Below are positions 9,101 to 34,579 of a stretch of 64,000 nt of DNA, in pieces. A program made the position numbers and the translations under genes. This DNA comes from a virus (lineage: Duplodnaviria > Caudoviricetes): positions 64,001-128,000 of the IMG/VR virus record IMGVR_UViG_3300021431_000081; one strand, written 5' to 3'. Numbering within the stretch: position 1 is the first letter of the stretch; every line of letters begins with the position of its first letter. The notes under the pieces are model-generated. The model was not told the DNA's origin. It worked only from the letters and a program-made list of their open reading frames with translations, and searched no databases.

Positions 9101-12100
9101 TAATTTACCCTTGATAGTATCCCATCCTCCACGGATGGTATCATACATAGTCGCATCAGATCCCATCTCTTGAGACTGTAACCATTTCTGATAAAGGCTA
9201 TCAGATACTTCAATCTGAGCATTCATTTTTGCCCAAGATGTTAATCTGGTCTGAATTTGACTTTGCTCTTGTGATAAAACACTAAGACGAGTTTTTTCGG
9301 CATCTGTTAATGCTTCACTCTTACTTGTGAGGCTTTCAATTTCTTCTTTATTCTTTTTATATTTAGTGGTTAATGTATCATATTGATCATTTAACTTCTT
9401 ACTAATATCATGTTTTTGAGTATTAATCATTTCCTGCGCAGCTTTTGCATTTAATTGCATGCCATTCGCACCTATAGAAATTGCATCTGCAAAACCTTGA
9501 TATGTTTCAGTTAAAGATTCAAAAGTTTTTTGTGATAAAAAGCCATTCTTGCTTTGTTCTGCCATAGCAGAAGAAAGTGCTGTTGAAGATTCGGCCAATG
9601 TATTGATTGCAGTATTCGTACTATCAGCGAATTCATTCCATTTATCAGCAGCTCTACCTGTAGTTGTTGCTGATACTAATTCAAATTGCTGCATTAAATT
9701 AATTGCGTCTTGAATAAAAGTAGGAGATTGGAAATCTACTAATCCTGCTCGACCAAATACTCTGGCAACATTCATTGCGGATTGTTGGATAGAAGAGTAC
9801 TGATCTTCAGGAATTGTCCAATCAATTTCACTTAATTCTTCAGCACTAATTTCTTTAAGATCCTTTAATGCATCTGTATAATTATCTTTTAATTTTTCTT
9901 TTACTTTATCATTGATAAATTTATCTGGATCAAAAGTCATAATTTCATCGGCCTTTAAAGAGCCAATAATTTTTGACCATGAAGTACCTGCAATATAATG
10001 TGCAATTCGATCATTTTCTGAGCCAGATAACATGCTCATCAATGAAGACTTTCTATTTTTAAATACCTGTTGAGTACTATCAATACCAAAAGCATCAATT
10101 AATTCCTGACGTTTATCTTTTCCAATATGAAGCGCATTCATAGCTGCATCAAGGCGCTGTTTCATAATATCTGCATAATCATTAACATCTATCTTGGATA
10201 AATCAGGAGAGATAAAATCTTTAAGTACTTGAGAAGCCTCGCCTGTAGCATCTGATCGAATAGTATCAACAAATTTTAAATAATCTTCAGCACTAATTAA
10301 TGCTTCTTTTGAAAATTGCTGTAAATATGCAACTCCATCTTGTGTTACTTGACTATCCAAGCTAAGATCGGGCGTAATTTCAGCATATGATTGTTTTAAA
10401 TAATCAACAGCATTTTGATAACTCTCTTGTGCCGATGTTATTTCAGCGTAGTATTGCTTAATTTGATTTTCTAAATCTGTAATAACTTTTGACTTCGATT
10501 CATTCCGATATTTTGCTTCACCCGTAAAGCTATCGTAATCATAAGCTACCTTTACAGTATCGCCCTCTTGTTCTTGAATTTCTTTAATTTGTTGCTTTAA
10601 TTTATCTATTTTTCCTTGATTTTCTGCGGTTTTATCGTCAACCGCTTGCTTTAAAGCAGGTATTCCTGCATTAGAAGAAGGATTCACTAAAGAATCAATA
10701 TTAAAAGAAGTTGCGTCAATTATAGCCCCTTCTTTTGCTTGGGCGAGTTCCCTATATTTATTAATCTGATCTTGAATAATTTCAGTATTTGCGAGAATAG
10801 CATTACCTTCACTATCCCAACCAGTTACTAATTCAGGGAACTGTTCTGCAATTTGTTGACGAATAGCATAATATTCTTCAGATCCTGCTTCAGCTTCTCT
10901 ATATTGATCTAAAAGTTGCTGAAGAGAATTGGCGCTATTATTATATTCATCGTATTCTTGTTTAAGTGTGTCTGTTTTCTCTTTACTGGAATCAATAAGT
11001 TTTTGATTACGTTTAGATACAGCATCAAGTGTATCTGCGTAATTATTATATACCCAAATAGCTGCTCCTACAGTTGCTGCAATACCTGCAAAAATAAGCG
11101 CACCTTTACCGAATAAAGAAAGCTGCGCCCAACCTGCTTTTAACCCATCCCTAAGTTTACCACTTTGAGCGGTTGCTTCTTTCATTGCTTTGGCAACATC
11201 TTTAAATTTTCCTGCAACATGTTGGATTTGTTCTACTCCATCTTCGTCTATAATTTGAATATCTTTACCCTTTGTAAGTCCATCTTGCAAAAAGTCAAAA
11301 ATAGTTGTTTGTTTTTTCGCAGCCTTAAATAAAACACCATAACCACCAAATATTGCTAAAGCTGCTGTTTTTAATAAACCAAATTTATCAACGACTCCCA
11401 TGATCACAGAGCCAAGATCAAGGAAAAAGTTAATAACATCTCTATTTGCTGTTCTTGCCCAGGCTTGTTGCCATTGGTTCTGAAGTTTGGCTAAATGACC
11501 TGAAATAGAATCTTGATATTTTTGTAATTCTTCTTCAGCTGAACCGAATGAATTTTGAGACGAACTATATACATCTCGTAAAAGTTTTCCATTTTGTAAT
11601 ATCGATGCGACAACGTTTGCCCTATTCTTCAAATTATATTTACATATATCGTAACTATATGCTTTTTTATTTTATGCTGTGCATAAAATAAAAAACTCAT
11701 ACTTTCGTATGAGATTAGACTATTTCTTATCCATCACTTTGATGGTCATACTTTTTCGATTACAGGTATTTAACCAACGCCATTAACTTGCGTCCTACTC
11801 CTATTGTTAAAGATATTCAGGATTTCCACCTTTATTCTCAAGTCTTTAACCCGTTCGGGGATAGTCGTTGAACGTTCACCCTCGACTTAACTAACATATG
11901 GTCTATGTGTGACGTTAGGGTGCTTCGCTGCATGAACAGTAATTATTCTTCATAATAGAAGAGCAGTACTTAGGCTTTTAACCATATACCATCCTTACGT
12001 TTTTTCTACTTTCGTACCATCATAATGTGGTTTCCCCATTATTGTGGTGTAAGGCTTTATACATTACCTGCAATTAAATATGATCTATATTGCATATCAC

Positions 12101-15100
12101 TATACAACCCGGTAAGATTACGTTTACCGGCTAACACTTCGAGCAAACCGTTCGCACGGTTCGTGCCATATTGTTTATCTGTTGCAATTATTTCTTCATA
12201 GACATCTGCAATATCCTGAAGAATCTCATAGGTGCTTCTGAAATTACCGTTTTCATCAAGTATATCTACACCTTTAAAGCCATTACTAGCTACAGCAGTG
12301 TAATCTTTAATTATTTGTTGAGATTTCGCTGATGTTTGGACTACGAAGTCATCTACGTCTTCTCCAAGATCAGCAAGTTCGGCCTTTGCTTCCTCTGTGC
12401 CAGTTATTCTCAAAGCAACCGTTCTCATTGCATTGCCGACCTTTTTAGGGTCCTGCACAACTGCATTCCCGGCAGTAATTAAAGCAATTGCTTCATCAAT
12501 GTCATTCGATTTATTATGAGTTTAAAACTCACTTTTTTATTATGCAATGCATAATAAAAACTGCATCTTTCGATGCAGTCCAGACTATTTCTTCATCTTC
12601 AGCTTTACCTGTTAAGAGTACCCTTTTCGATTTAAGAGATTTTCACTCACATATTAAATATATGCCCTACGATTATTGATTTAAGTATTCAGGATTTCCA
12701 CCTTTATTCTCTTGCTTAAATCCCGACATGGATCTAGTCGTTGAACGTTCACCCTCGACTCAAGCACCGTATGTTCTACGGAATACGTTAGGGCGCTTCG
12801 CTGCATGAACAGCCAATCCTTACGTTTTAAAACCATCATAATATAGTTTCCTTATTATTGTGGTGTAAGGCTCTAAGGCATTACCTGCAATTAAGAATAT
12901 TCATATAATACATTTCTGTATTATCAGGCAATTAGACATTTCTTTTTACCTGCTGTTTTTAATGAACTTGCTGACAACTGTAACGCTGTTGCAAGGCCAT
13001 CAGTACTAATTGAAAAGTTATTACCTACATTGTTTAACTTATCAATAATATCCATTTTGCCAAGATTATCATAAGCTTGGCTCATAGCTACTAAACTTTC
13101 AGTAGCTTCATCAATACTTTCAAATTCTGATACATTAAGTAAAACGGAAGCATCTTTTGCAGATTCTTTTGCGTCATCAAGCGTCTCTCCAAGCCTCATC
13201 CAGTCAGCAGTACTTTGCTGAATAACTAATCCAGTAGTACCTGCCTGATTTGCTATATCATAACTTTCAGTTTGAAATTCTTTAAGACGGGAGAGTGGTT
13301 CATCAGATACTTTTGCCATTTCGGTTAAAGCATCATCTAATTGATGAATAATTTCAAAACCCTCACGAGCATAACGAATAAAATCTTGAATAGAAACATA
13401 TGATAAGAAATAAGCACCTAAATCTTTAAATTTTCTTACTAATTTTGTTGAAAAAGTATCTCCTACTTTTCCTGCCTTATTTAATTCTTGTTCAAAACTA
13501 TTAACTTGTGCTATCGCATGCTCTAAAGAAGCTTGATTTACATTTTTTAAGCCATCGCTAATTTCTTGTAAATATTGTTTTCCCTCTTCCCCCATCTTTG
13601 GGTTATTCGTTATTAAATTACTAATTCTTTTTTGTAAAGCGGTAGTATTTTTTTCACTAGCCTTAATATTCTTTTTGTCACCTAATTCATTTTCTAAGTT
13701 TTGTACTTGATGAACTAATTCACCAATCTCTTTTATTTCTTGAGGATTAGTAATATCAATACCGTTCTTTAATTTGTTTTGAAGAGTCGTAATAGTTTGA
13801 TCCAGTTCATCTAATTGAGTTTTATATTGATCAGTATTTATAATTTTATTATTATTAAATAACTCATTAAATGTTTTTTTCTTTCCAATAGTTTTGTCAA
13901 CAATATCAGATACTTTTCCCGCATACCTTTCAGAAGCAGATTCTATCGCTTTTTCCATTTGAGAGTCTAAAATGATATCTGTAGATTTTCTGTCATTTAA
14001 TAATGTTTGTCTTTTATTGTATTTTTCTTGTATTTTACTAATTATATTATCAAAAGATTCATCAGCATTAACTTTTAAACTTTTTTCTGCTAAAGAAGCA
14101 CTTTCCTTAATTAGTTGTTGTTCATCTTTATACGATTGTTTTTTATCCTTTTCTTCTTTTCGTTCTTTCTCTCGTTTTTTTTTACTTTCTTCTTTTTCTT
14201 CTCTTTCAATTTCCTTATCTAATTCTTTTTCTTCTTTTCTTCTTTGCTTTTCCTCTGCCGCTTTCTTTTTCGCAACTTCTGCCTTTAATTCTGCATAATG
14301 TTTTTCTTGATCATCTTGTTTTTTCGATTCTTTTAAAGTGTTTAATTGCTCTTCTTTAGATTGACGTATTTTTTCTAATGCTTCTTTTTCATTATCAGTT
14401 AAATTTAAGATTTGTTTGTTTAATTCATCTTCAACTTCTTGTTCTTCATACATACGTTGTGTTGCAGTTGTGTTATCCTTTGCAGGATTTGTCACATTTC
14501 TTTCTAGCAAAGAATATTTTTTATTCAAAGCCTTTTGTGCTAATTCAAAACTGTTATTTACAGCATCCTCAATTCCAGATACAACGGTTCTTTGTACTGA
14601 CTGACTAATCGGATCATATTTATAATCTGTTCGCCATTTTCTTTTATTACCATGTTCATCAGTGTCTTCATGATCAACGTGATATTTTGAAATGTTGCCA
14701 AACCTGTCTTGGGTATAATATTGATTTTTTCTACTATACTGATCAAAATTACGTTCATCAGCAGCAATAGCTTGTAAAATTGCTTTATGACCTATTTCAC
14801 TAATACGTTCTTCATCAGTTAAATCTTTAGAGTCTCTTTTTTTCTTATTAGTTTCTTTTTCTTCTTCAGCCTTTTTAGTATTTTCAATTTGTTGTTGTAT
14901 TTCCATACTTTTTACTAAAGAAGAAAAATCAATATTACTTAAAGTAGTAAAATCTACATTTAATTGATTTAATAAATCTGTTATTGCAACAAGTTCCTCT
15001 CGAAGCTGCTCAATAAAAGTCACTTCATTATAAATTACTTCTTCAACAGTACTATTTTCTTTTTCAAAAGCTTCGGTTTTATCATTAACGGCTCCAGTTA

Positions 15101-17159
15101 CTTTTATTATTGCATCAAATAAACTACTTATTTGTGTAGATTCATTAGAAAAATCTAGTGCTTCACCAGTACTATCGGTTATTTTTTTTATTTGATTAAT
15201 TGCTTCAGTTAAAGATGGAATTATCTTATTTAATGTTTCCGCAAAATCAGAAAATTGATTATCTTGCATCTCTTTTCCTGAAAATACTTGTTTTATCGTA
15301 TCCAATAAATTATTAATTGGTGTTGCTTCTTTTTCCAATGTTTTTATTTCATTTCTATAATTTTTAAATATTTCGCCAAACTGAGATTCCCAAGCACTAA
15401 TATCAACACCCGCTCCTTTAAGTAGCTGTTGTATTATAGAAATTCCATTTTTAAAATAATCAATTGTATTTTGTAAACTTTTTCCGGGAGACTGTTCATT
15501 GTGCGCTATATATTCATTAAACAAATCTACATTAGAAGAAACAATGTTACCTTTAAAACGACTTTCAACAATTTCACCTTTTTCATTATATATATCTCTA
15601 TATAAATAACGTTCTAAAGAATTATAAGCTTCTTCAATTTGAGGAACGAATCTTCTTTTTATTTCTCCTTCTTTTTGAGCCTGCACAACAGAATTATTCC
15701 CTTTAAAAATTGATTTAAAATCACCTAATTCAGCAATTTTTTCATGTAAAGTAGTTAAGGTTTCATTCAAACCGTCAAAGCCTTTAGAAAAATCAATATT
15801 TTTTATATCATTTGCTAAAGTTTTTATTTCGCCTAAGTTCTCTTTTATGACGTTAAAAGATCCAAAAGTATCTGTTGACGCTAAATATCCTATACCTACT
15901 TCAATTTTATCTAATGTATCAATTAATTCTGTAAAAGGGGTCTTAATATCTAAATGGCTTAAAGCTTCTAATTCAGTCGTAAGTTTTTGAACTAACGCAA
16001 TTAAAACTCCAAACGCTTCAGCATAATCACCACTTATCTTACTAGGATCAAAATTCATTACAGCTTTATCTAATAATTCTTGTATATAATCAACTTGATT
16101 TGCATATTGCTGATAACTATCGAAAGCGTTTTCATATAATATCTGTTCTTGTTTTACTTCATTTGAATCGATACCATATTGTTCAGATTTGTTTGCTGCT
16201 CTTTCTGAACGCCACTCTGCAGAAGACAAATAATCATCTCGTATCTCTTTTAATCGTTTTAATTCTTCTTGTAATTTTTGTATATCATCTAACTCATCAA
16301 AATCTAAGCCCCAATATGAATCACGATCCGCTTGTTCACGTAACTTCCTTTTTTCATCGGCAAGTTTTTTAATTTCTTCTCTAGTTTTTGCAATTATTTT
16401 ATCTGGCGTTGAAGAAGTATTGCCAGAACCATCACCTGGTCCTGTACCATTACCATCACCATTACCATTGCCTGATCCATTTCCATTATTTGAAGATCCT
16501 TTATTGGTCTTTTGAATATTATCCAATGCATCTTTTAAAGAAAGCGCTTCAATTTTAGCTTTATTTAAATCCTCAGTTAATCCTTTGAAACCTGCTTGCT
16601 CTAAAGCTTCTTGGGGTATTTGTTTTAATAAGCCAAATAATTCTTTAAAAGCATCAACTGTTTGTGGTAAACCGCCTTTTGAATTTTTGTCCAATCCTTC
16701 ATATATTTCTCTAATACGAGTAACAAATTCAGCCATTTCAGGATTAATTTTTTGAATATCTCCACCCAAGGCTTCAAAGGCATTAGCTCTTTTCCATAAT
16801 TCAGATACATCTTTAGAACTATCTTTAAAGAAACCCTTATCATCAACTTCCCCATTTTTCCATTTTGATAATAGATCTTGATTTTGAACTAATTTATTCC
16901 ATTGTTCAATTAATGAATTTTGTGCATTACCTATTGATTGAAAATATTTTTTCGGATTTTTTTGATTGTATTGCTTTATACCTGACAATTCCTTATTAAT
17001 ATTTTCAACGTCTTTATTACCTTCTATTTTAAATTCAATTTTATGACTACCTTCTACTGAGCCAATCGAAGACGCTAAACTTTTTACAGCTTCTGTCAAG
17101 GCACGAATTTCATTACTAGCACCAGATCCACCTTTATTACCTGATATTTTTGTAGCCAT
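3122..17159 (-). CDS. Tape measure protein, three exons (17159-12948, 12506-12126, 11629-3122), about 4366 aa after splicing
   Basis: Spliced junctions restore ...SASSLKTAG|NDIDEAIALITAGNAVVQDP... and ...LLEVLAG|KNRANVVASILQNG..., which read as continuous tape-measure core sequence. Long helical/coiled-coil composition; lies between chaperone-like genes and the tail-tip gene. Confidence 0.92.
11630..12125 (-). ncRNA. Group I intron (IA-like, 496 nt, no ORF), tape measure intron 2
   Basis: 5' site after GCCGGU; terminal G at 11630. Core motifs CAUGCAGCGAAG, GUUCAACGACUA (R) and AAGAAAUAGUCU (S). Guide UCUU-ACCGG pairs both exons; removal restores the frame. Confidence 0.9.
12507..12947 (-). 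ncRNA. Group I intron (IA-like, 441 nt, no ORF), tape measure intron 1
   Basis: P1 CAGGU/GCCUG with U.G wobble at the splice site. P10 AAUGUC..AUU pairs exon 2 start AAUGACAUU. Same core motifs as intron 2; terminal G at 12507; removal restores the frame. Confidence 0.93.
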
Positions 17160-17180
17160 TCAACGCCTCCTTTCTTTATT

Positions 17181-17786
17181 CTATAAATAATTATAAATAC
17201 CACTATTTTGAATTAGTTCATTTAGATATTGTGTACTCATGTCATTATAATATTGATTTAATGTATTACGGCCTTTTATATTAAATTCACGCTCTAATCC
17301 TCTTAATCTTCCTGCGAATGGTTCTGTGCTTACAGCACGGCCCCCCTTAGATTCAGGAACCCATGCACCTTTTACACCTGGTACATGATACCAATAAGTT
17401 CCCGGATGTGGATGATTAGGGCCACTTATTGCACCACCATGATAACCTTTCTCAGCGGTTAATGCCCATAATTTAGCTGAACCCAATCTATGAACTTCAG
17501 GAACTAAATGCGCTCCCCAATCAAAGCTTATTGATCCTGATTCCGGATCATATTCAAAAGAATAACTATCTTTTAAGCTTAATGTAGGATCATAAGACTT
17601 TCTAGTATACGCTCCATACCAATTCATAACAATTAATTCATATTTATTTTTGTATTCATTAATTACTTTTTCTGCAGCATTATCATAAGCCTTACTGTCT
17701 AATTCTGGGAATGCGTCAATAATCATATTACCTAACTCAACAATTTTATGTAACTTACCAATTAATCTTTTAGAAACAATTTGCAT
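17181..17786 (-). CDS. Putative tail/neck component (HK97 gp10-like position)
   Basis: 201 aa with RBS; WYGAYTRKSYDPT motif; immediately upstream of tape measure. Confidence 0.5.
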   Translation of the reverse strand: MQIVSKRLIGKLHKIVELGNMIIDAFPELDSKAYDNAAEKVINEYKNKYELIVMNWYGAYTRKSYDPTLSLKDSYSFEYDPESGSISFDWGAHLVPEVHRLGSAKLWALTAEKGYHGGAISGPNHPHPGTYWYHVPGVKGAWVPESKGGRAVSTEPFAGRLRGLEREFNIKGRNTLNQYYNDMSTQYLNELIQNSGIYNYL

Positions 17787-17810
17787 AATATATTGTCTCC
17801 TTAAAATATA

Positions 17811-18242
17811 TTACAGTAATTTTGAATTCAATAATAAATCATTTAACCGCATAGAAAACAATGCGTCAAATGCTTGTTTGTCTTCAGGCAACTTTTCCCA
17901 AATTTTATCTATAATTTTATATTGATTTAAAAAATCAAAAAACAAATCATTATCTTTGTTAATATCAATACTAAATTGAGTATATAAATTTATAACTGTT
18001 AAAATATAATATTTATATTCATTCGGTTTATTATATAATATTTTCCCTTCGGGTTCATAATGTGCCTTTCGAATTATATTATCTATACTATTTATTTTTT
18101 CATTATATGGAATATAAGTAGATTCCGATAATACTAATTTTGAAATATAATTATCTTTAATATTATCTGATTTAACGCATGAATATTCATTCATAAAAGC
18201 ATTAGTATCATTTAATGATTGATTCATTATCTTATCCTCCAT
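17811..18242 (-). CDS. Putative tail assembly chaperone (paralog of upstream gene)
   Basis: 143 aa; YIPYNEK...AHY...NLYT pattern shared with 18242-18802. Confidence 0.5.
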   Translation of the reverse strand: MEDKIMNQSLNDTNAFMNEYSCVKSDNIKDNYISKLVLSESTYIPYNEKINSIDNIIRKAHYEPEGKILYNKPNEYKYYILTVINLYTQFSIDINKDNDLFFDFLNQYKIIDKIWEKLPEDKQAFDALFSMRLNDLLLNSKLL

Positions 18243-18802
18243 TATTCTAATTGTATTCCGTTCACCATTTCCATAATTTCAGGCATTACACCACTAACGG
18301 CATCTAATACTTGCTCCGTTCCTTTGGCAATTCCAATCATAATAGCATCAATAATTTCCTGAGATTGCTTTTGTGAGTTGATATCATCAAAGAAATCTCG
18401 TTTAATGCAATAAAAAACTTTTTTGAATTCTTTAATATCATCTGATGCCAAATCTTCAATCATTTTAAAATCCTTTATTGCACCCATAATTAAATCATAT
18501 TCTTTTGTTGCATCTTCAGTATGCAAATCTAAATTCGTATATAATTCCATAATTGTCCATTGAAATAAGAACAACTCTTTGGATTGATTATGTTTATATT
18601 TATCGTTTTTAAAATGAGCTGTTTGCAATATATAAGTAGCATAGGTCATTTTTTCTGCATAAGGGATATATGCATTTTTATCAATAATTTCACTCATGAT
18701 ACATGCTTTCCTATCATCAGCACTTTCTGCCTCATCATATTTTTTAAGAAAATCAGCAACACTGATTTTTTCAATATTTTCATTATTCATAATTTTACTC
18801 AT
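18242..18802 (-). CDS. Putative tail assembly chaperone
   Basis: 186 aa, acidic and helical; YIPYAEK...AHF...ELYT; lies between tail tube and tape measure. Confidence 0.5.
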   Translation of the reverse strand: MSKIMNNENIEKISVADFLKKYDEAESADDRKACIMSEIIDKNAYIPYAEKMTYATYILQTAHFKNDKYKHNQSKELFLFQWTIMELYTNLDLHTEDATKEYDLIMGAIKDFKMIEDLASDDIKEFKKVFYCIKRDFFDDINSQKQSQEIIDAIMIGIAKGTEQVLDAVSGVMPEIMEMVNGIQLE

Positions 18803-18814
18803 ATCTCGATCCTC

Positions 18815-19381
18815 CTAGTTTTCCTTATATTTAGCACAAACTCCCTCGACTATTTCATCCTGGATCCGGCCTTCCATTGCCTTACGAAGAATTGAACAGT
18901 TTCTATCATACCGTTTACAGGTTTTGCATTTATCTTCAAAATAATCAGCGGAAGCTTGATTATCAAACACTCCTACAAAATCTACAGGATAAATAGTCAA
19001 TTCAATATGTGGATTTTTATTATCGTACATAACCTTTAAAATGCGATTACAAACCATATTATCATCTAACCAAACCACACCAGAATCTGTAATAGCATCA
19101 GAAATGCACTTATCATAATTAGCGCAATCCATATCGGTCCTTGGAAAATAATAAACCGCATCAACATAATAATGCTGATACGGATTTTCACTTTTTATCC
19201 AACCTTGTTTTTTCGCCTCTTGTTTTACATATTCTGTAAATCGTTTCTGGAAGTCTTTCGCTTCTTTTGTCTTATAGGACATTGCCATAGGTTTTCCATT
19301 TTTATACATTACACGATATGCAAGATAGTGATTCACTGAAATGAATTCATTTACGGTGAGTTTTAATACTTGCTTTTCCAT
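18815..19381 (-). CDS. rusA: RusA-family Holliday junction resolvase with C-terminal Cys cluster
   Basis: SVNHY near the N-terminus; DCANYDKCISDA and WLDD match the RusA DxxNxxKxxxD...DD pattern; CKTC...C...C tail. Confidence 0.8.
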   Translation of the reverse strand: MEKQVLKLTVNEFISVNHYLAYRVMYKNGKPMAMSYKTKEAKDFQKRFTEYVKQEAKKQGWIKSENPYQHYYVDAVYYFPRTDMDCANYDKCISDAITDSGVVWLDDNMVCNRILKVMYDNKNPHIELTIYPVDFVGVFDNQASADYFEDKCKTCKRYDRNCSILRKAMEGRIQDEIVEGVCAKYKEN

Positions 19382-19394
19382 AACTCACCACCAA

Positions 19395-19796
19395 TCAATA
19401 AATATATCCTTCAAGAGTAAATACAGATTCTGTATTCGAACTATCTGGATCAAGATTGGCATATACATCAAACGATATCATGGTCATTTCACATGGAAAA
19501 TCCCAAACATAAGACTGTTCATGCCAATCATTGATAGGAATGAACCGTCCTTTCTCTCCAATTATCTTTATATTAATAATTTTACCTTTGGCATTTAATA
19601 ACATTGGTAAAAAACCTATAGATTTAAATTCAATTGTATTAATATCCCGTCTTTGATAATTGATAGTAAAATTATTTACTTCACTTAAAACTATAGATTT
19701 ACCATTTTCATAATTTAATATTACTTTTACACTGGTATCCCCAGTAATAAATGTTTGATTTTTTATAGGCTCAAATGTCATATTTTTCTCCTTCAT
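19395..19796 (-). CDS. Hypothetical protein
   Basis: 133 aa ORF co-oriented with the operon; probable start at the internal MTFEP after an AAGGAG RBS. Confidence 0.6.
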   Translation of the reverse strand: MKEKNMTFEPIKNQTFITGDTSVKVILNYENGKSIVLSEVNNFTINYQRRDINTIEFKSIGFLPMLLNAKGKIINIKIIGEKGRFIPINDWHEQSYVWDFPCEMTMISFDVYANLDPDSSNTESVFTLEGYIY

Positions 19797-19833
19797 ATTC
19801 CGATACTGTAGTTCTAACCCTACTATTCAATTT

Positions 19834-19878
19834 AAAAAAGCCATGATATAATCCCCATTAAGGAGGCATATCATGACA
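19834..19878. promoter_or_regulatory. Dual element: minus-strand terminator overlapping a plus-strand extended -10 promoter and RBS
   Basis: CATGATAT...ATATCATG stem next to an A6 tract; TG-A-TATAAT at 19844-19852; AAGGAGG before ATG 19873. Confidence 0.55.
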
Positions 19879-20082
19879 AAACAACAACTAATTGATATAA
19901 TTTCAGAGGCTAATAATTTAGCTTCGTTACACTTTATCGAATTATATAAACAAAATGCTGATTTTATATTGAGCAAAGAAGATAAATACGCTCAATATTT
20001 TGCGTTAGGTTTTACTACATTTAATGCAGTTCAATTAATACTATTCTTTACTTTATATCAAATTTGCGAAATAGAAGAGTAG
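19873..20082 (+). CDS. Small counter-oriented protein with hydrophobic C-terminus (moron-like)
   Basis: 69 aa; own RBS and promoter; fills a gap between minus-strand genes without overlap; YFALGFTTFNAVQLILFFTLY is hydrophobic. Confidence 0.65.
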   Translation: MTKQQLIDIISEANNLASLHFIELYKQNADFILSKEDKYAQYFALGFTTFNAVQLILFFTLYQICEIEE

Positions 20083-20334
20083 TCATACCTCTTTGACCAG
20101 GTCGTAAGAGATCTGAACAGGTATAACCACTAATTCAATATCATCATTTGTTACATGCTTATATTCATCTAGTAACATTTGCGCTATACTTCGATCTTCG
20201 GTGTATAGCGCTTTATTTATGCGTTTATAAAAACAATATTTATACTCACCAGGTTGTTTATACAAATACATGGTAGGAGATGAAACCGTTGCAATTATAA
20301 ATTTTATTTCTTTTAACGTAGGTATTGTATCCAT
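20083..20334 (-). CDS. Hypothetical protein
   Basis: 83 aa ORF with RBS, in operon. Confidence 0.65.
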   Translation of the reverse strand: MDTIPTLKEIKFIIATVSSPTMYLYKQPGEYKYCFYKRINKALYTEDRSIAQMLLDEYKHVTNDDIELVVIPVQISYDLVKEV

Positions 20335-20348
20335 AATCCTTATTCTCC

Positions 20349-20579
20349 TTATAGCAGCTTACGCTCATTCCATAATTGTGACACCTCTTTTGTGTCTTCT
20401 CTATAAAAAACGTATACCAATATATCATTTCCTTCGCAGTCTGAACTAGCATATAAATCTATAGGGTATACATTATGTTTTATATATTTTTTTGCCTGAA
20501 TAGGATTTATGATTCTAACTACTTCACCTAATTCATAATCGCATCCAGTAATATTAGTCTTAATTAGCATCCTATTCAC
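20349..20579 (-). CDS. Hypothetical phage protein
   Basis: 76 aa (VRIINPIQAKKYIKHNVYPIDLY), in operon. Confidence 0.65.
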   Translation of the reverse strand: MNRMLIKTNITGCDYELGEVVRIINPIQAKKYIKHNVYPIDLYASSDCEGNDILVYVFYREDTKEVSQLWNERKLL

Positions 20580-20585
20580 CTTCTT

Positions 20586-21155
20586 TCAAGGAACCAGTTC
20601 ATTACCAAAACTGTCCCAACCCAGTCGTTCACGTCTTGCATACATTTCTAATTTGTTTAAGTTTGGATATAGATTCTCTATCATCTCATAGCTACATTCA
20701 GGTTTCTGGCTGTGATGTTTTGGTAATTCATGGAATACCGAATGATATTTCCCTCTATACTCTTTAGCTACTGGAATGAATTTACCCTTATAAGCATATA
20801 ATAGATATTCGTGACCAAAACGTATTGTAAATGCAGCGGGAATACCGTTAATCTTATCCCAGATCATACGAGAATGAATTTTATATCCCAAATCCTTTAA
20901 AATTTGTTCTGCTTCAAATAAATATTTATCTATAGTCCATAAAAACATCACACAGTCACCCCCCCCTATACAATTTTCAGAGACATATTTTAAATGCTTC
21001 TTAATATCATCCAGTGAGAGAGTAGGGTAATCCAGATCTGTTCCGCTTGAATTTTTTCGGACTGCTTTTTTGCCACCTTTTGTTTGTTTCCAAGGTGGGT
21101 CTGCCAGTATTAAATTATATTTACCATCAATTTGATGAATGTCCGTATATATCAT
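20586..21155 (-). CDS. MT-A70-family adenine methyltransferase
   Basis: ILADPPW, FLW, WDK, HSQKP, LEMYARR and GWDSFGNE motifs. Confidence 0.9.
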   Translation of the reverse strand: MIYTDIHQIDGKYNLILADPPWKQTKGGKKAVRKNSSGTDLDYPTLSLDDIKKHLKYVSENCIGGGDCVMFLWTIDKYLFEAEQILKDLGYKIHSRMIWDKINGIPAAFTIRFGHEYLLYAYKGKFIPVAKEYRGKYHSVFHELPKHHSQKPECSYEMIENLYPNLNKLEMYARRERLGWDSFGNELVP

Positions 21156-21183
21156 TCCTTGTTCTCCTTTCCCTTTTTAGGGC

Positions 21184-21231
21184 AAAAAAGGGGAGCATAA
21201 CCCCGCACAGTGTGCAAAGCTATACTCCCCT
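21184..21231 (-). terminator. Intrinsic terminator upstream of the methyltransferase
   Basis: AGGGGAGUAUAGC...GUUAUGCUCCCCU followed by a U-tract on the minus strand. Confidence 0.6.
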
Positions 21232-21282
21232 ATCAGAATATTTAAAATAAAAAATCACTGTGCAAAATACTATAATCTCTGA

Positions 21283-21603
21283 TTATTCAGTCTGCTCAGA
21301 GTACGCAGTTTTTTTCTTCTTTTTAGTAAACTTAGGATTTTCGATCTTCATAATTTCATCGATTCTTTCTGCAATCACTTCATTATATTTATCAGTTCTT
21401 GTAAGATCATATTCTTTAAGCTGTTCACGAGCCTGATCAATAGTAATTGCTTTTCCTATATAGTTCGAAGTAATTTTATAAATCATTCTACAATTATTAG
21501 AATCAAAAGTAGTCATCCAAGCAGGTTTATCCTTATCTTCACCACAACCCGGACAATAACTATACATTTTTCCGCAAATTGCACATTTTCTATTATTTGC
21601 CAT
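21283..21603 (-). CDS. Hypothetical protein with Cys cluster (CxxC...CxxC...C)
   Basis: 106 aa; AGGAGG RBS; CAICG and CPGC. Confidence 0.7.
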   Translation of the reverse strand: MANNRKCAICGKMYSYCPGCGEDKDKPAWMTTFDSNNCRMIYKITSNYIGKAITIDQAREQLKEYDLTRTDKYNEVIAERIDEIMKIENPKFTKKKKKTAYSEQTE

Positions 21604-21711: not shown

Positions 21712-22808
21712 TTAGTCTTCATCATCATCATCAGCCCAAGTGATGTAGTACAGCAGTTTTTCAGAACCGCAGTAAGAGGACTGCAGAGAACCGCTGAAGT
21801 CTACGGTAGCATCCGTAGTCAGAGACAGAGAAATCTCAGGGCTGATTTGGAAGGACGGGAAGGTAATATACATTGCCTTGAGCGTATTGACAGAACACGG
21901 ATCGATAGCGAGCGCTTTTACAGTCAATTTAATAGTTCCAGGGAATTTGTCAGACTCATTAACGATCTTTGCACCAGTATTAACGGTACGATCATATTTA
22001 ACAATATACTGTTCAATACCAGTAGTATTAGGAGGTGTAAGCGTTGTTACACCATCGACAGTGGTAATATTATAAGCAGTTAAGTCATAAGTCTGTCCCA
22101 TACCACCAGAGGTATTCATATCAGAAACCTGAATAGTACCTTCAATAAAACCAGTGATATCAAGGGTTTCACCCTTCTTCACAACAGCAATACGAGGCAT
22201 TACAATAGTATGAGATGTGGTAGCCATCTCAGCATCCGTACCAGAAGCAGTAGCCAGAGCGGAGAAATTAATCATTGCTTCTGTAGCGGTAACTTCGCCA
22301 GTTTTTGCCTGCCAAAAGCGTTTTCAATTTCTGTTACTTCTATGACCTATTATGAATATAAAAATGCAAATAATAGGCGAGTAAGTATTTCTACTTACTT
22401 CTCACATTTCATTTTTTTTAGATTATAGTGTGAGTTCAGACTGTATATTCATCCTTATAAAAATAAGGAGAGCCACTTCAATATATATGTCACCATATAT
22501 ATCCTGCAGTCGTTACGGATTCTCTCATATAAAGAGTCTTTCCTCGGTCTTGTCCATCTCTGGAGTTTAACCGATATAGTGGCTTTTTAATTATGTATTA
22601 CTACATAACCTGGCAAAACTTATACCAGAGTGCCTTGGGCATCAACAGCGTCTTTAGATTCAGCAGTAATATCAACAGTAAAATTATTTAACTGAGACAT
22701 CAGCAGTACAGGTACATCAGTATCTACACCATTAACTTTCTTTGTCATTTCACCGTAGGCGAATTGTACTCTGTCCACGATGATGTCACCAAGCATGAAC
22801 TGTGCCAT
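21712..22808 (-). CDS. Major tail (tube) protein, two exons (22808-22624, 22324-21712), 265 aa
   Basis: ATG 22808 with AAAGGAG RBS; splicing gives ...DAQGTLV|KRFWQAKTGEVTATEAMINFS...; beta-rich, Thr-rich; acidic tail; tail-module position. Confidence 0.8.
22325..22623 (-). ncRNA. Group I intron (299 nt, no ORF) in the major tail gene
   Basis: Guide GUUUU-GCCAG pairs 5' exon CUGGU (U.G wobble) and 3' exon AAAAC. P3 GCCACU/AGUGGC; R CCGUAACGACUG; S AUAUACAGUC; terminal G at 22325. Confidence 0.92.
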
Positions 22809-22858
22809 AGTGTACTCCTTTCTATACGAATTTCGTAATTTGTTCAATAAAAAAGAAC

Positions 22859-26359: not shown

Positions 26360-26381
26360 TGGTATTTACCTCCATTTTGGG

Positions 26382-26918
26382 TTAATTTAAGAATGAAGAT
26401 AATAAATTTAATTCCGTTCCAAAGAAATCATCCAACGCCTTAATTTTTCTTACACTGTCAAGCTGACCATTAGCGATTTGTGTTGACGCAATATTTTTTA
26501 AAGAATTTAAAGCGTTAGGAGGAAGAGTCTTCATAGTAGCAATCATATCATTATCTTTTAATTCTAAAACCTGTTGTAAATCTTCAACAGTATACTGTTC
26601 ATCATAGAATTTTCTTAATTGAGGAAATTCATTAATGAAATCTTCATCTTCAATAACAAATAACGGTCCAAAAATATAGGAAGACTTACTGCGAACTGAA
26701 GAGACTAAATCTCTATATTCGACTTCAGTTTCATCGCCGTAGTCTACCCAATTATAAGTAATATTCGACTTTGCACCAGTATACCAAAGACCACCAACAG
26801 TAATGGATCGACACATGATTCCATCTTCCTGTGCAAACTTCTTTTTCACAATATTATCTTCTTTTTCTTCTTTTATTTTTTCTACTCGTCTAGGAGTAGA
26901 AGTAATCTTTCCAGTCAT
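26382..26918 (-). CDS. Hypothetical protein (post-capsid gene)
   Basis: 178 aa with RBS. Confidence 0.7.
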   Translation of the reverse strand: MTGKITSTPRRVEKIKEEKEDNIVKKKFAQEDGIMCRSITVGGLWYTGAKSNITYNWVDYGDETEVEYRDLVSSVRSKSSYIFGPLFVIEDEDFINEFPQLRKFYDEQYTVEDLQQVLELKDNDMIATMKTLPPNALNSLKNIASTQIANGQLDSVRKIKALDDFFGTELNLLSSFLN

Positions 26919-26950
26919 ATCTTTTCTCCTTGTAATCCTAAATAGTATTA

Positions 26951-28096: not shown

Positions 28097-28121
28097 TATT
28101 GTTTACCTCCTTTCCACAAGA

Positions 28122-28586
28122 TTAAGCACCAACAACATATTTACCGTTGGAGAACGTAACAGCTTTCCCCTTTACGGGAGTACCAGAGAATCCTGCTAAA
28201 GAAACTTCGATAATATCCCCCTTGGTCAGACTATACGCCTTAACCGTTTTGCCAGATTCATTATAGAAATTTTCCTCTTTAGTAAATTCCTTATTATAAT
28301 CTTCCGCAATAATAGGAGAATCATATACAAACAGTGCTTCAGCGGGAGTGGTTACTTCAATGTACCAATTGCCATTAGCTGCTTGTTCCTGAATTACACC
28401 TGCAAAATTTGCAGGAGCAGCTGCCTGGGCATACTCATCAAAAGCAACCCAAGAACCACGACCAACAATTGCAGTATTATCTGTATCAGCAGTTAATCGA
28501 ATATTATAAATGTGTCCACCACCATAGGCAGAAAGTACCTTTGATGGAAAACCAAATGCATGCTTTGCGATTTGATAACTAATCAT
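28122..28586 (-). CDS. Putative capsid decoration/stabilising protein
   Basis: 154 aa, beta-rich; between scaffold and capsid. Confidence 0.6.
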   Translation of the reverse strand: MISYQIAKHAFGFPSKVLSAYGGGHIYNIRLTADTDNTAIVGRGSWVAFDEYAQAAAPANFAGVIQEQAANGNWYIEVTTPAEALFVYDSPIIAEDYNKEFTKEENFYNESGKTVKAYSLTKGDIIEVSLAGFSGTPVKGKAVTFSNGKYVVGA

Positions 28587-28690
28587 GTGCTTTTCGCTCC
28601 TTTCATAAAATAAAAAAGAAGAATCAAATTACTGATTCTTCAGATTGTTTTTGTAAATATTCATCGTAATACATAAAGTATCTAGGATTA

Positions 28691-30370
28691 TTATTTCTTA
28701 AACAGATTTCCGTATCTGCTCTTTTTAGGATTTCCCTTTGCACCACTAGGTACTAATCCCATACGAGTAACTTTCTTCTTTTTTTCACCTTCATTAGCTT
28801 CGAAATTTAAAGAACCACTCTTAGCATAATTCAGAAGCATACCATCGACTTTTTCCTTTAACTCTTCAAAAGTCATTTCATTCTTACCATTATTAACCTC
28901 ATTAACAATGGCTGTGAAATCTTCCTTATTAGCAATTGCAGAATAATCATCTGATGCTACTAATTCTTTCTTCTGATACTGTGCTAGATCCTTAGAAATT
29001 TGCTCATAATTCTGTCTCATGTTTTCGACTTGCATCTTTTCAGATTCTGTCAGTAACATAGCAAATAACTGTATTCTTTCCCCAGAAAGACTAATGGTAT
29101 CGCCGTCTTTGGTGTAACTTTGTTTCCAGAATTTATCAGAATCCCAATCTTCCATAATGAAGTAATCTTCATAAATATCCGCTACATAGCACCATTCATT
29201 CTCATTACGATAAACAGCACATAATGCATTAAGACTCTGACGGATTTCATTAAAGCTTAACTCAAACAACTGATTAAATAACTCCTCTTTGGTAAGAGAA
29301 TTATTCTGTTTCTTCTTTTTGCCAGTAGTCGCAGAATCATCATCATTTACTGCACCGTCATCTGGATCATCTTCCGTATTATCATTACCAGTAGGTTCTG
29401 TAACAGGATCTGTAACAGGATCAGCAGTGGGTTCAGGATCAGTCCCACCTTCAGTTCCCTCACCCGTATCATCAGGATCATCAAATGCTGTCTTAAAGGC
29501 GGTTTCTAATTCCTCATCAGATAATCCTTCATAGCTGAACGTAATATCTTCCTCAGTCTTGCCATATTTCTCTAAAAGTTCAGTAAACTTATCCATTGGC
29601 GTTTCCTCCTTTCTTTCAGCATTATTTATATTTAAACTCTCAAGCGTTTTGTTAAGTGTCTCAAGAGTCTCAATCAATTTATCATTTCGCTCATAGTTCA
29701 TTTCCTGTGCTGCGAAATCTTCAATCTGTAAATGCGCATTTTGCATTCCCGGTCTACGATCCTCTCCCAGAAGTGTAATTCCACCTAATTCAATATCCTC
29801 TAATAACAATTCTTTCTTCTTAGCATCATAGGACATCTTATTGACATACAGTTCTGCGGATACATCTGTACCACCTCTGCGTTCAATAATTTCCGCAGCA
29901 GGAGTATACTCTCTTGGAATAGCAGCTTTAGCATAAACGTAATATCGTTTATCTTTCTTATCATATTTCATTACAGGATCATCAGATGTAATGCATCCTA
30001 CCTGTTTTTCCAAATAAACAATATTTCCATTATCATCTATTTCCATATCATGAGCGGTAAAATCCAATACTTCGGTTCCATCATCTAATGTAACAGTTTG
30101 GTAATTACAAAGAATTGGTTTATATTTAAATCCGTTTAAACTATTTTCCATGGCTTTCTTTGTAACATTTGATCCGTTATTATTCTTATTGGTATGGAAT
30201 GCTCTGATATTGGCGAATAACATAGACTCATCATCAGATTCTTCCTGCTCAAAAGTCGCAGGAACACTCACGCATAACTTATAACCATTTTTATTTGAAT
30301 CAAACTCTGTAAAATTTTGCTCTTCACAGAATTTAACTAACTGATCAATAGTCATTATTGTCTTACGCAT
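28691..30370 (-). CDS. Prohead protease/scaffold fusion
   Basis: 559 aa; HTNKNNNGS, H, VSAEL and ITLLG..PGM protease-like N-terminus; acidic Pro/Thr/Asp linker; coiled C-terminus. Confidence 0.75.
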   Translation of the reverse strand: MRKTIMTIDQLVKFCEEQNFTEFDSNKNGYKLCVSVPATFEQEESDDESMLFANIRAFHTNKNNNGSNVTKKAMENSLNGFKYKPILCNYQTVTLDDGTEVLDFTAHDMEIDDNGNIVYLEKQVGCITSDDPVMKYDKKDKRYYVYAKAAIPREYTPAAEIIERRGGTDVSAELYVNKMSYDAKKKELLLEDIELGGITLLGEDRRPGMQNAHLQIEDFAAQEMNYERNDKLIETLETLNKTLESLNINNAERKEETPMDKFTELLEKYGKTEEDITFSYEGLSDEELETAFKTAFDDPDDTGEGTEGGTDPEPTADPVTDPVTEPTGNDNTEDDPDDGAVNDDDSATTGKKKKQNNSLTKEELFNQLFELSFNEIRQSLNALCAVYRNENEWCYVADIYEDYFIMEDWDSDKFWKQSYTKDGDTISLSGERIQLFAMLLTESEKMQVENMRQNYEQISKDLAQYQKKELVASDDYSAIANKEDFTAIVNEVNNGKNEMTFEELKEKVDGMLLNYAKSGSLNFEANEGEKKKKVTRMGLVPSGAKGNPKKSRYGNLFKK

Positions 30371-30425
30371 CTTTAACCTCCTTTCCTTTAAAATAAAAAC
30401 TCCTCATCTTAAATAGGAGAGGAGA

Positions 30426-30596
30426 TCAAACGAACAATTTATTCGTATATATAGTATTCTCATTTAATGAGAATATAATCTTATCATTATTTATGAAAGT
30501 CCATCCAGAAGAACTCTGATAAACTTCTTTTAATCCCAGTTTTCTTAAGGTCTCAGCAGTTTCTTTGGATGTTGTATATATAAACTTTTTATCCAT
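30426..30596 (-). CDS. Small hypothetical protein (56 aa, below track cutoff)
   Basis: AAGGAG RBS; MDKKFIYTTSKETAETLRKLGLKEVYQSSSGWTFINN... Confidence 0.65.
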   Translation of the reverse strand: MDKKFIYTTSKETAETLRKLGLKEVYQSSSGWTFINNDKIIFSLNENTIYTNKLFV

Positions 30597-30605
30597 AATT
30601 ACTCC

Positions 30606-32162
30606 TTAAGATTTCGCTTTATCTCTTTTTTCTGCAGATTCATCTCCAGTATCTGTTGGCGTATCAGACTTAGGTCTACCACCAGTCACAGGATCTGTTC
30701 CATCTGTAACTGTACCAGAATTAGTAAATGAAGAATTAAGAGGATAGATCATTACATCCTGCAGTTTAAGAACTTCGTTCTCCAAGAAAAGCATAGCCAG
30801 ACTATCTTTTTCGGAGAATCCATTAAGCGTCATATACGCTAACTTAGTAGGTAATGAATATTGTCCCGCTTTCAGCATATCTTCCTTAAACTGCTCTCTG
30901 GTATATACGGATATGGGGAAGAATTTAACTATACACGGATTGCTACACAGATACCCCAATTGTCTGTTCACGAACGCCTGTGTCTGGGGAAGAAGAGAGG
31001 AGATAGCAAATTCGGTATTTGCAACCTGTGAATATCTAAATGCCTCTGCACCAGATATGGTTTCTCCATTTAAAATCTCTGCACCACCAGTAGTATTTAA
31101 TACTGTTTTAGTAGCATTAGAGACTTTCGTAGTATCACCTGCGGCCTGATCATCAAATGATATAGAATCAAGTTTACCCGGTACTAATGCAGCACTAATA
31201 TAATCAGGTAATGCTTCATTGATCATTCTCTGGAAATAAGCTAATACTAAATCAGGATTAACTTTCCAATCATCTACATCTTCGCCAATGGTTTCCATCT
31301 GCAACCAGATCATTTTATAAATTTCCTGTTCATCCGCAATGGCCTGAATGTCTTCCAGATCAGCTAAGTTAATTAAAGCGTTAAAAGCTGCTAAAAACGG
31401 AGGAAGAACAGTTTCATAATCTTCATAACGGTATTTTAAACAAATCGCATACTCATCTGGTACTGGTTGCCATTTTTCACCTGAACTCTGATACGCTTTA
31501 TACATCTCATCAAAGGGTTCGGGAATATATTCAATTAACTCCTGACGAGATCTCAAATACGTCATATCCATACTGATTGCAAAATCACCTGTAGTATATT
31601 TACCATCAATTCGTGCATAATTGGCAGGAATTTGCCAAATAAATACACCAGTTTCATCTATAAGATAAATTCCATAAAATACATCCTGTATAAAACATGT
31701 AAGGTATATAGTATAGAATTCTTGTTGTAAATGCATTAATTCAATCCAATCGAGTGTTTCCTGATAAGATTTAAGTGTTTTATTTACATCCGCTCCCTTA
31801 ATTAAATCGTATTGAGGAATAACCGATCTTCCATTTAAATAAAACATATTCGCATAAAAATGACATAATCTCATATATGTCATAGAACGATAAAATAAGT
31901 ACCAAGATAAGTTTCTTAGATTTTGTTCATTACTGCCCAAATTACGCATGTATGTACGTAATTGTTCTTTGTTAAAAACACGAATAGCTTTTGTTTGAGT
32001 CTTAGTTACATCTCTCAAACGAATAGCGTTTCTTTGATCTTCTTCATATTTTTGTAATTTTTCTTGGGCTTTCTCGTAATCTTGCACTAATTGTTTTTGC
32101 TGTGCTACAGTTAATCTCGAAGATGCCGAAGCACTCTTCGGAGAAGATTTTACTTGTGCCAT
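30606..32162 (-). CDS. Portal protein
   Basis: About 518 aa from ATG 32162 (AAGGAGGTG RBS); directly after terminase; C-terminal GGRP motif. Confidence 0.8.
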   Translation of the reverse strand: MAQVKSSPKSASASSRLTVAQQKQLVQDYEKAQEKLQKYEEDQRNAIRLRDVTKTQTKAIRVFNKEQLRTYMRNLGSNEQNLRNLSWYLFYRSMTYMRLCHFYANMFYLNGRSVIPQYDLIKGADVNKTLKSYQETLDWIELMHLQQEFYTIYLTCFIQDVFYGIYLIDETGVFIWQIPANYARIDGKYTTGDFAISMDMTYLRSRQELIEYIPEPFDEMYKAYQSSGEKWQPVPDEYAICLKYRYEDYETVLPPFLAAFNALINLADLEDIQAIADEQEIYKMIWLQMETIGEDVDDWKVNPDLVLAYFQRMINEALPDYISAALVPGKLDSISFDDQAAGDTTKVSNATKTVLNTTGGAEILNGETISGAEAFRYSQVANTEFAISSLLPQTQAFVNRQLGYLCSNPCIVKFFPISVYTREQFKEDMLKAGQYSLPTKLAYMTLNGFSEKDSLAMLFLENEVLKLQDVMIYPLNSSFTNSGTVTDGTDPVTGGRPKSDTPTDTGDESAEKRDKAKS

Positions 32163-32252
32163 AGACACCTCCTTGACTTTAAAATTTTAATGGTCTAAAT
32201 AAAAGTGATGGGAGAGTAGCGTAGTGCTACCCCGTATTATTAGAAGTGTATT

Positions 32253-34579
32253 TTAATCCCAACTATTTGGTCGTTTAGCAGGACGAATAATTAATTTATC
32301 TAATAAAGATTGGTTATTGGTCGTAGTACGTTTTTGTGTTAAATGCTTACGTCTCTCTTGTTGTAAAGCATAAGCAAGCATGATAAGGGTATAAAAGCGA
32401 TCGTCCCCTGTGTTAATTTTTATTGCTTCCTTAAAGCAATAAAAATACCGTGGTACTTCCAAGAGTGTCTTTACACTCGACCACGGTTCTCATATTTCAT
32501 TATTAAGTTATAGTATGAAGTTCAGACTGTCGTATCCTCATTTAATCCCTATGAGGTTTGATCACTCAGTCGTTCACGCTGTATTAAAACTTGCGCCTTG
32601 TTGTCCACTTCTGGATTTCCAAGTCAATTAGATCAAATTTTATTTATGTAGTTTATGGATTATACTACATTTGCACAACGTTTTTTATGCAATTTTCCCG
32701 CTTTTTCTGGTGCAAGATCGAATGAATCTCTACCAGATTCCCTTTTCTTACGTACTATGTTAACCGTTTCTTCTTTCATAGCGTCAATATTGGCTAAAGC
32801 CAATTCTTCTTGCCAATCCAGTTTAATTGTCTTAGTATTTACAGATTGTACTTTTGATAATGCTTCATTATATTGCTCTTCATAGTCTTCTTTATTTAAC
32901 TTTTTCTTCTTAAGTTGTTTAGCAATATCCGCTTTCGCATTTTTGAGCTTTTCCTCATCTATATCAAAGACAGTCAAATACCCCTTATTATCATAAGGAG
33001 CGGTAAAGGATATTTTATTCTGATTTACTAACTCGATTAATGCCTCTGCCATTTCAGATTTATACGCTGTCGGTGACATAAGATGAAGTTTATCAACAGC
33101 ATTCGGGAAGCGTTTTACATATTCTGCTGAATACTCTTTATCAATCAGTCCTCTATGCTTTTTACCCGACTTATCTTCCCAGTCTTCCATTAAGAAGTCG
33201 GCAATGTTTACACCACCACCGCCAGAACCTGCATCAATATAGATGCCAATAATATTTCCATAAGCATCTACACCTGCGTTATATCCAAGTATCAATTCCT
33301 TTAAATATTTAATCTGATCAGGAGTTTGCATGGGTGATTTAATCTTTTTTCCTATATCCATAAGATTAAGACAATTACATACCCTCATCTTAATATCATC
33401 ATCACCATTTATATCCTTTTCATGGTATATTTCTCCCACACTAACTACACTGTTATCTCTGGTACGAGCAGGATCATATGCTATAACAAATTTTTTCTCA
33501 CCAGTATCATTGTCTAATAATGGTTTACGGGTCTCCTCATTACGAGTAATTACTCCTCTGCGAATAATGGCATCCGCACCTACATCTGTTGTGAATATGC
33601 AGTAATATTCCCTTCTTGCTTTCTCTGGATTTCTACGCATCTCAGATTCGACCGTAGAACGAGAAAGAAGAGGAGTGATTAATTCTCCACGAAGAGTGGG
33701 CTTAAATGCCTGTTCACAATCTATATGTAAAACTGCAAAATCAGGATTTCCCATGATTTGCTGTTTAGCAAAATCTCTGTATAACTTATAAAATTCAGTA
33801 TCCGTACTGGAAGCAGAAGATATATAAAATTTCTGATATGGAAGATTAGTAGCGAATGTTCTTTGTCTGATTGGATCAATAGATTTGCCAGAGGTGTCTT
33901 TTCCTGTCTTTAAGCTTTTATTGGTTACAGCAAAAGCACCATATACGGCAATCATTTCAGATGATAAAAAACCACACTCATCAAATATAACTGTTCCTCG
34001 CGCTCCCCTGCGAGCGTCTATATTGCTATTGAGAGTTATAGTCTGACTGCCATTATATAGATTATATGAAAATCCATTAGATGAATGACTAAAACCATCA
34101 CCTGCAGCATTTTTGACTTCTACTTCCGCTTTAAAAATATAACCTGTTGAACCACTAAAAGTATCTATATTATCATTAGCAATTTTTTCCAACGTAGTAA
34201 AAGTTTGTTCTGCTTGTCCACCAGTGCCACTGGCAATATAAGTCCAAACGTTACTAAAAGCCATATCCTTTGCCATAGTCTCTAAATCTATTACGGTAGA
34301 TTTACCATAGCTTCGGGTACATACATAAAGTACATTCGGGCAAAACCAAGAACGCTGCACCATCAATGCCTGTCCATCCAATAACTCAATATTAAAAAAC
34401 AAATCTATCATTTGAACAGGATTGCATTGAAAATACTTTTGCATTTTTGCTATCTCTAAAAGCCCATCAATTTTTCTTTGCGAGAGGGGATAATTAATTG
34501 GCTTCACAAAAATGCCGTAATCTTTATAAAAATCTTTATCATAATCATCAGGAACCCATATATTATTCTGAGTTAGCAT
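32253..34579 (-). CDS. terL: Terminase large subunit, two exons (34579-32687, 32405-32253), 681 aa
   Basis: Walker A TRSYGKS, Walker B VIFDE, YISSA, AYDPA (RNase H). Splicing restores LH|DDR, the C-terminal nuclease acidic motif. Confidence 0.92.
32406..32686 (-). ncRNA. Group I intron (281 nt, no ORF) in terminase large subunit
   Basis: P1 UUGCAU/GUGCAA with U.G wobble; P10 CGUU/GACG; P3 UUGAUC/GAUCAA; R GUGAACGACUG; S AUACGACAGUC; terminal G at 32406. Confidence 0.92.

Follow-up and report, generated by a model that had tools for sequence, protein, structure and literature searches.

The window analyzed here is a stretch of 64,000 nucleotides (nt), bases 64001-128000, of the 155,845-bp viral contig IMGVR_UViG_3300021431_000081, which is complete according to CheckV. 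Every gene between about positions 1 and 49,000 of the window lies on the minus strand, and the window holds the late operon of an uncultured 156-kb rumen-type siphophage. Three of the late genes, encoding the tape measure protein, the tail tube protein, and the large terminase (TerL), are interrupted at conserved sites by four group I introns devoid of an open reading frame (ORF), two of which lie in the tape measure gene (Table 1). These introns had been proposed from the sequence alone, and their coordinates and lengths proved exact to the base. Removing them restores single open frames, each with one terminal stop, that encode 4366 (tape measure), 265 (tube), and 681 (TerL) amino acids and are colinear with intron-less homologues. 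The unspliced frames, on the other hand, terminate 8, 23, 2, and 9 codons in. From these stop codons, we infer that the full-length tape measure, tube, and TerL proteins require four splicing events. The absence of endonuclease genes was also borne out, since the longest stop-free stretch on either strand of any intron is 62 codons and no homing endonuclease gene is present within the window.

Interrupted genes and their intron-less relatives

The positions of the tape measure profile continue across the exon pieces, showing that these are contiguous parts of one gene. The tube gene was identified through its homologue in a related locus (L037:2339-3148, 269 amino acids), which belongs to the YomU/Tube major tail protein clusters of a protein atlas (feature score of 0.98, TM of 0.86). 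The tube protein had no Pfam match and no sequence match among solved structures. A portal gene follows the terminase gene.

Table 1. Introns, exons, and homing-type nuclease gene of the phage (window coordinates unless G000 is indicated)
Feature	Coordinates	Strand	Length	Characteristics
Tape measure intron 1, group I	12507..12947	-	441 nt, no ORF	RF00028 49.7 bits, E 4.4e-10; P1 CAGGUAA/UUGCCUG with U·G; fold z -5.1
Tape measure intron 2, group I	11630..12125	-	496 nt, no ORF	RF00028 32.4 bits, E 6.7e-5; P1 CCGGUAA/UUACCGG; fold z -5.5
Tube gene intron, group I	22325..22623	-	299 nt, no ORF	RF00028 31.5 bits; P1 CUGGUA/UGCCAG with U·G; fold z -5.1
TerL intron, group I	32406..32686	-	281 nt, no ORF	RF00028 none; P1 UUGCAUAA/UUGUGCAA with U·G; fold z -4.4
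Tape measure protein exon 1	12948..17159	-	1404 codons	ORF ends in frame at GGT; phrog_4211 positions 479-746, PF10145 positions 8-111
Tape measure protein exon 2	12126..12506	-	127 codons	phrog_4211 749-832, PF10145 114-189; contiguous with exon 1
Tape measure protein exon 3	3122..11629	-	2835 codons + stop	phrog_4211 841-1581
Tail tube protein exon 1	22624..22808	-	61 codons + 2 nt	tblastn: directly before exon 2 in uninterrupted L037-L039
Tail tube protein exon 2	21712..22324	-		phrog_2729 positions 56-222, PHROG annotated "virion structural protein"
Large terminase exon 1	32687..34579	-	631 codons	phrog_2, E 1.9e-27; 32 related loci
Large terminase exon 2	32253..32405	-	50 codons + stop	Begins with DD of conserved H-D-D motif; in frame directly after exon 1 in 30 relatives
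Free-standing HNH_3 endonuclease	G000 144006-145058	+	350 amino acids	Zinc ribbon; sole homing-type nuclease gene among four Pfam families searched

Comparison with relatives that lack the introns fixed every junction exactly. The TerL relatives comprise 32 related loci from viral contigs, 31 of which reach the intron site, and in all but one of these 31 the reading frame passes from exon 1 straight into exon 2, between H631 and D. The TerL intron is thus an exact 281-nt insertion with respect to 30 uninterrupted relatives, including L004, the closest one, which shares 93.5% nucleotide identity and has no intron. The tube gene is uninterrupted in L037, L038, and L039, where ...GTLVKRFWQ... is read across the junction, and L036 carries a 99.7% identical tube intron at the same site as the window. 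The tape measure genes of L041, L043, and L046 are uninterrupted at both sites occupied in the window. When the other observed insertion sites are also considered, 30/31 TerL, 3/5 tube, and 3/6 tape measure relatives are free of introns. The 5' exon of each intron ends with U, and each intron itself terminates in G (omega G). Only the splice positions given by the sequence-only reading agree with both the uninterrupted relatives and this U/G rule.

Megablast and tblastn searches of 50,697 isolated phage genomes, including tblastn with TerL, returned no match, so the phage has no cultured reference. A TerL with 69% identity is found in a genome contig of Eubacterium ruminantium.

The TerL gene of E. 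ruminantium ATCC 17233 (L230 1417-3000, NZ_FUXA01000016.1) is itself split near residue 195 by ∼1.57 kb, as are those of L029 and L030. The insert, for which Rfam gave no match, holds a 435-amino-acid ORF with putative LAGLIDADG-like motifs, as read by eye.

Structure and kinship of the introns

Three of the introns match RF00028, the group I model of Rfam, with E values from 4e-10 to 7e-5, although their scores are all below the gathering threshold of 50 bits (Table 1). Both tape measure introns align to all 253 positions of the model. The sequence-only reading had assigned a P1 and an R/S core to each intron. We found the R/S (P7) core in all four of them and predicted a P1 at each 5' splice site. 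The U·G wobble expected at the splice site is present in tape measure intron 1 (CAGGU/GCCUG), in the tube intron (CUGGU/GCCAG), and in the TerL intron (UUGCAU/GUGCAA), but the corresponding pair of tape measure intron 2 is U-A. All four introns fold better than every shuffled sequence, with z scores from -4.4 to -5.5.

For the TerL type, we built a structural alignment of five introns, namely, those of the window, L012, L079, and L070, which occupy the same TerL site, and the second intron of L098, which lies 13 nt further on. In the structure composed of P1 to P9.1 and the P3/P7 pseudoknot, 95.5% of cells were paired, compared to 35 to 45% when one strand was slid. Compensatory changes were seen at 28 of the 63 pairs, including 5 of the 7 pairs of P3. 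As the structure was derived from the first sequence, these values are somewhat favored. P10 also covaries, since exon GACG faces intron CGUU in the window and exon GAUG faces intron CAUU in L012. Core alignments of 17 TerL-type and 24 tube-type introns showed an invariant P7 and covariation in P8 and P9.

The terminase gene of L098 (about 4245-4660, minus strand) contains two TerL-type introns split by a 13-nt mini-exon (GATGATAGAGCCT). The first one is at the site used in the window, between H and DD.

The four introns belong to two related IA-like families. The two tape measure introns are 73 to 87% alike. Model R1, which was not trained on the tube intron, gives this intron 51.7 bits, and model R2, which was not trained on the TerL intron, gives the latter 42.9 bits. 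These cross-matches to the other type support a link between the tube and TerL introns. The earlier division into two structural families holds roughly: a P7'-P9 block is common to the tube and TerL introns, but an extra P7.1/7.2-like hairpin between P7 and P3' is found in the tube type only. Screened with RF00028, R1, and R2, the whole genome yielded just these four introns. The core motifs of both intron types are nevertheless widespread in viral contigs, at 77 and more than 102 loci.

Both tape measure introns end in a long, nearly perfect A/U-rich hairpin (window 11660-11710 and 12520-12560, minus strand). This hairpin is near the position of the endonuclease ORF in the related L042 intron and might be a trace left by loss of the ORF, or else a peripheral P9 element.

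Origin and persistence of the introns

Several relatives of these introns carry endonuclease genes. The TerL site of the window is also occupied in L012, by an intron of 1321 nt. Over 261 nt, this intron and the window copy share 88% identity, and a 3' peripheral loop of the L012 intron contains a GIY-YIG and NUMOD1 ORF. The TerL-site intron of L079 appears similar to that of L012, since the start of its ORF reads as a GIY-YIG motif. At tape measure site 2, L045 carries a 1647-nt intron with a 312-amino-acid ORF, the C-terminal motif of which looks Vsr-like when read by eye but is not confirmed by Pfam. L044_i1 and L042_i represent a single intron (93% identity), but only L042_i contains an ORF, which encodes a 383-amino-acid zinc finger protein. 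An endonuclease gene has thus been gained or lost in this intron family. Empty and endonuclease-bearing alleles coexist both at the TerL site (L012 versus 30 empty) and at tape measure site 2 (L045 versus 3 empty). Such coexistence of empty, ORF-less, and endonuclease-bearing alleles is what homing with later loss of the endonuclease gene should produce (PMC3984707). Compared to L004, the sequence flanking the TerL junction in the window differs at positions -6, -4, +5, +11, and +14 within an otherwise similar stretch, and three of these five positions match L012. These differences fit a short co-conversion tract or an adaptation of P1/P10.

The four introns are very probably endonuclease-less members of two mobile intron families, which were acquired by homing and must be spliced for virion assembly. 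According to this reading, each intron would fold into a group I core after transcription and would be excised by guanosine-initiated two-step transesterification, whereby the exons would be joined and the full proteins restored. The in-frame stops just inside the introns would keep ribosomes away from the ribozyme core. Acquisition would have occurred by endonuclease-driven homing in mixed infections, at least for the TerL site and tape measure site 2. Splicing would now render the introns nearly neutral and allow them to persist, and the intron lineages would circulate among related phages.

Some observations weigh against this reading. The TerL intron had no match to RF00028 even when it was searched alone with lax filters. 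Among the few relatives available for tape measure site 1 (6 loci) and for the tube site (5 loci), none has an endonuclease-bearing version of the intron. In addition, U(-1) of tape measure intron 2 faces A instead of forming the canonical U·G pair, and no alternative P1 register of this intron gives U·G. The U·G wobble is nearly universal at the cleavage site of group I introns and matters for the first splicing step, which the U-A pair of tape measure intron 2 should slow, in line with established ribozyme work. At the splice site of tape measure intron 1 and of the related introns in L042, L044, and L045, the pair is U·G. The exon flanking intron 2 reads GCC where the others have GCA, and the guide is changed to match. 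The distant tape-measure-type introns of L138, L145, and L175 gave no confident splice-site placement from which P1 could be read.

The sequence-only reading had proposed that the introns spread by reverse splicing or through a nuclease acting in trans. Reverse splicing would begin with insertion of the excised intron into a transcript, at a short stretch able to pair with the internal guide of the intron, and would proceed through reverse transcription and recombination. Tape-measure-type introns do occur at three sites, which are window site 1, a position 13 codons downstream (L042/L044), and site 2 (window, L045). These sites agree at 5 to 7 of the final 7 exon bases (GC[AC]GGU) and at the AA that follows, the part that pairs with the guide, but their remaining flanks are almost random. 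Furthermore, an ORF-less intron 83% identical to the tube intron is inserted after tube codon 6 in L040, compared to codon 62 in the window. The guides of these two introns are one base apart (GCCCAG versus GCCAG), and each site fits its guide. Introns of the same lineage at new sites that match the guide constitute the circumstantial pattern quoted for reverse splicing (PMC3984707). However, the same distribution of sites could arise from a nuclease that recognizes the shared GCAGGTAA with relaxed specificity, and the endonuclease ORFs in L042 and L045 have related C-terminal parts. No reverse transcriptase was seen, though none was looked for. Reverse splicing is an unlikely origin of the introns studied here. 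As a general route by which the ORF-less introns of this phage group would reach new sites, directed by their guide sequences, we likewise regard it as unlikely. If true, it would amount to comparative evidence that group I introns transpose via RNA in protein-coding genes of phages. L044 also has a tube-type intron, with a 429-amino-acid ORF, at a further tape measure site.

The search for homing nucleases over the genome covered four Pfam nuclease families. It gave no match to GIY-YIG, HNH, or LAGLIDADG_3 and a single HNH_3 gene, located outside the window (Table 1). Nor did the endonucleases of the related introns have a match in the genome. In T4-like phages, ORF-less introns are known to be moved by endonucleases acting in trans (PMC3984707), and the HNH_3 and zinc ribbon protein is a candidate for such a role. 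However, some 48 to 69 kb separate its gene from the introns, the ∼220 related loci searched contain no homologue in or near any intron, and related introns harbor endonucleases of other families. It is therefore very unlikely that this enzyme mobilizes the ORF-less introns in trans. The broader proposal of a nuclease encoded outside the intron is supported in part. Given the endonuclease-bearing versions at the TerL site and tape measure site 2 of relatives, ordinary homing with later loss of the endonuclease gene, or mobilization during mixed infection, suffices as an explanation.

The introns had also been viewed as a possible metabolic checkpoint, which would throttle virion production when GTP, Mg, or translation capacity is low. 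Without splicing, the late genes that contain the four introns cannot yield full-length products, and a dependence of T4 intron splicing on the growth state of the host has been reported (Sandegren and Sjoberg 2007, cited in PMC3073962). As growth-state-dependent splicing has already been described for T4, the checkpoint idea is not new. For the phage studied here, we consider it highly improbable. The metabolite-gated intron of the Clostridioides difficile c-di-GMP system combines an aptamer with the ribozyme, but neither an aptamer nor another sensor adjoins any of the four introns. At the gathering level, Rfam detected only two tRNAs in the window, and it detected no riboswitch at E values up to 10 between positions 11000 and 33500. 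All group I introns depend on GTP and Mg, and those of the window are dispensable, since most relatives manage without them. The pattern of presence and absence, together with the endonuclease-bearing versions, fits selfish elements. The introns thus look like ordinary leftovers of mobile introns rather than a new control device.

Although the contig is derived from a metagenome, pseudogenization, assembly error, inteins, or insertion sequences almost certainly do not account for the interruptions, because the insertions are precise and frame restoring with covarying group I cores, a near-identical intron copy is present in the independent contig L036, and the inserts are out of frame and hence not inteins.

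Known phage introns and neighboring late genes

Landthaler and Shub reportedly described, in 1999, three ORF-less group I introns in orf142 of the Staphylococcus phage Twort and also observed exon skipping. Splicing data and a crystal structure exist for Twort. The tape measure gene resembles orf142 in that several small ORF-less group I introns of one family interrupt one phage gene. In contrast to Twort, the multiply interrupted gene encodes a 4366-amino-acid tape measure protein, and its introns were studied here at the sequence level. A lesser speculation is that the 381-nt middle exon, which is in frame, could be skipped to give a second tape measure isoform. The Twort introns are mentioned in PMC3984707 and PMC3073962.

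The TerL genes of Bastillevirinae (Bacillus) phages contain one to three group I introns, some with VSR-type or GIY-YIG endonucleases and others with none, and several have been demonstrated to splice, both in vitro and in vivo (PMC11878797). TerL is likewise interrupted by a group I intron in the window. In contrast to the Bastillevirinae introns, however, the intron belongs to an uncultured siphophage, is inserted at the nuclease motif between H and DD, and has no match to RF00028, the model used for screening in that study (PMC11878797).

In the cluster J mycobacteriophages BAKA and Optimus, a minor tail gene carries an ORF-less intron that is related to the endonuclease-bearing intron in the capsid gene of LittleE and that was identified by comparison with intron-less relatives (PMC3706429). 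The tail gene introns described here share with it the small size, the lack of an endonuclease, the location in a tail gene, the kinship to an ORF-bearing intron in another structural gene of a relative, and the way in which they were found. BAKA and Optimus, however, have one intron per genome, compared to four in three genes here. A further difference is that related introns occupy different sites of the same gene in different phages of the group studied here.

The introns in td, nrdB, and nrdD (sunY) of phage T4 home by means of GIY-YIG or HNH endonucleases, and ORF-less or defective copies are mobilized in trans (PMC3984707). The four introns resemble them in their IA-like subgroup and in the in-frame stops near the 5' splice site. 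The T4 introns interrupt genes of nucleotide metabolism, whereas virion and packaging genes are affected in the window. Published group I introns of phages include examples in terminase, capsid, and tail genes, with or without endonuclease genes and with up to three introns per gene (PMC11878797, PMC3706429, PMC3984707). The biology of group I introns in late phage genes is thus already established, and our analysis adds an uncultured lineage, the tape measure gene as a host, and an intron type missed by Rfam.

In this phage group, gene callers will in practice fragment the genes for the terminase, the tube, and the tape measure protein. Given the number of loci that contain the core motifs and the failure of Rfam to detect the TerL type, a dedicated model would improve the annotation of metagenomic phages. 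The set of relatives, which includes empty sites, ORF-less and endonuclease-bearing introns, and the same intron at different sites, provides compact natural data on the homing cycle and on ectopic movement.

At 4366 amino acids, the spliced tape measure protein (window 3122-17159, minus strand) is very long for a siphophage. The usual rule is ∼1.5 Å of tail per tape measure residue, which implies a tail of roughly 650 nm. About ten small genes lie between the tube and tape measure genes (window 17181-21603, minus strand), where tail chaperones are usually expected. Among them, 20586-21155 encodes an MT-A70 DNA methyltransferase and 18815-19381 a RusA-like resolvase. In a check for another split gene in this interval, the MT-A70 methyltransferase proved complete, covering profile positions 1-172 of 172. 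Two tRNA genes (window 35917-35990 and 40809-40882, minus strand) are located upstream of the packaging genes.

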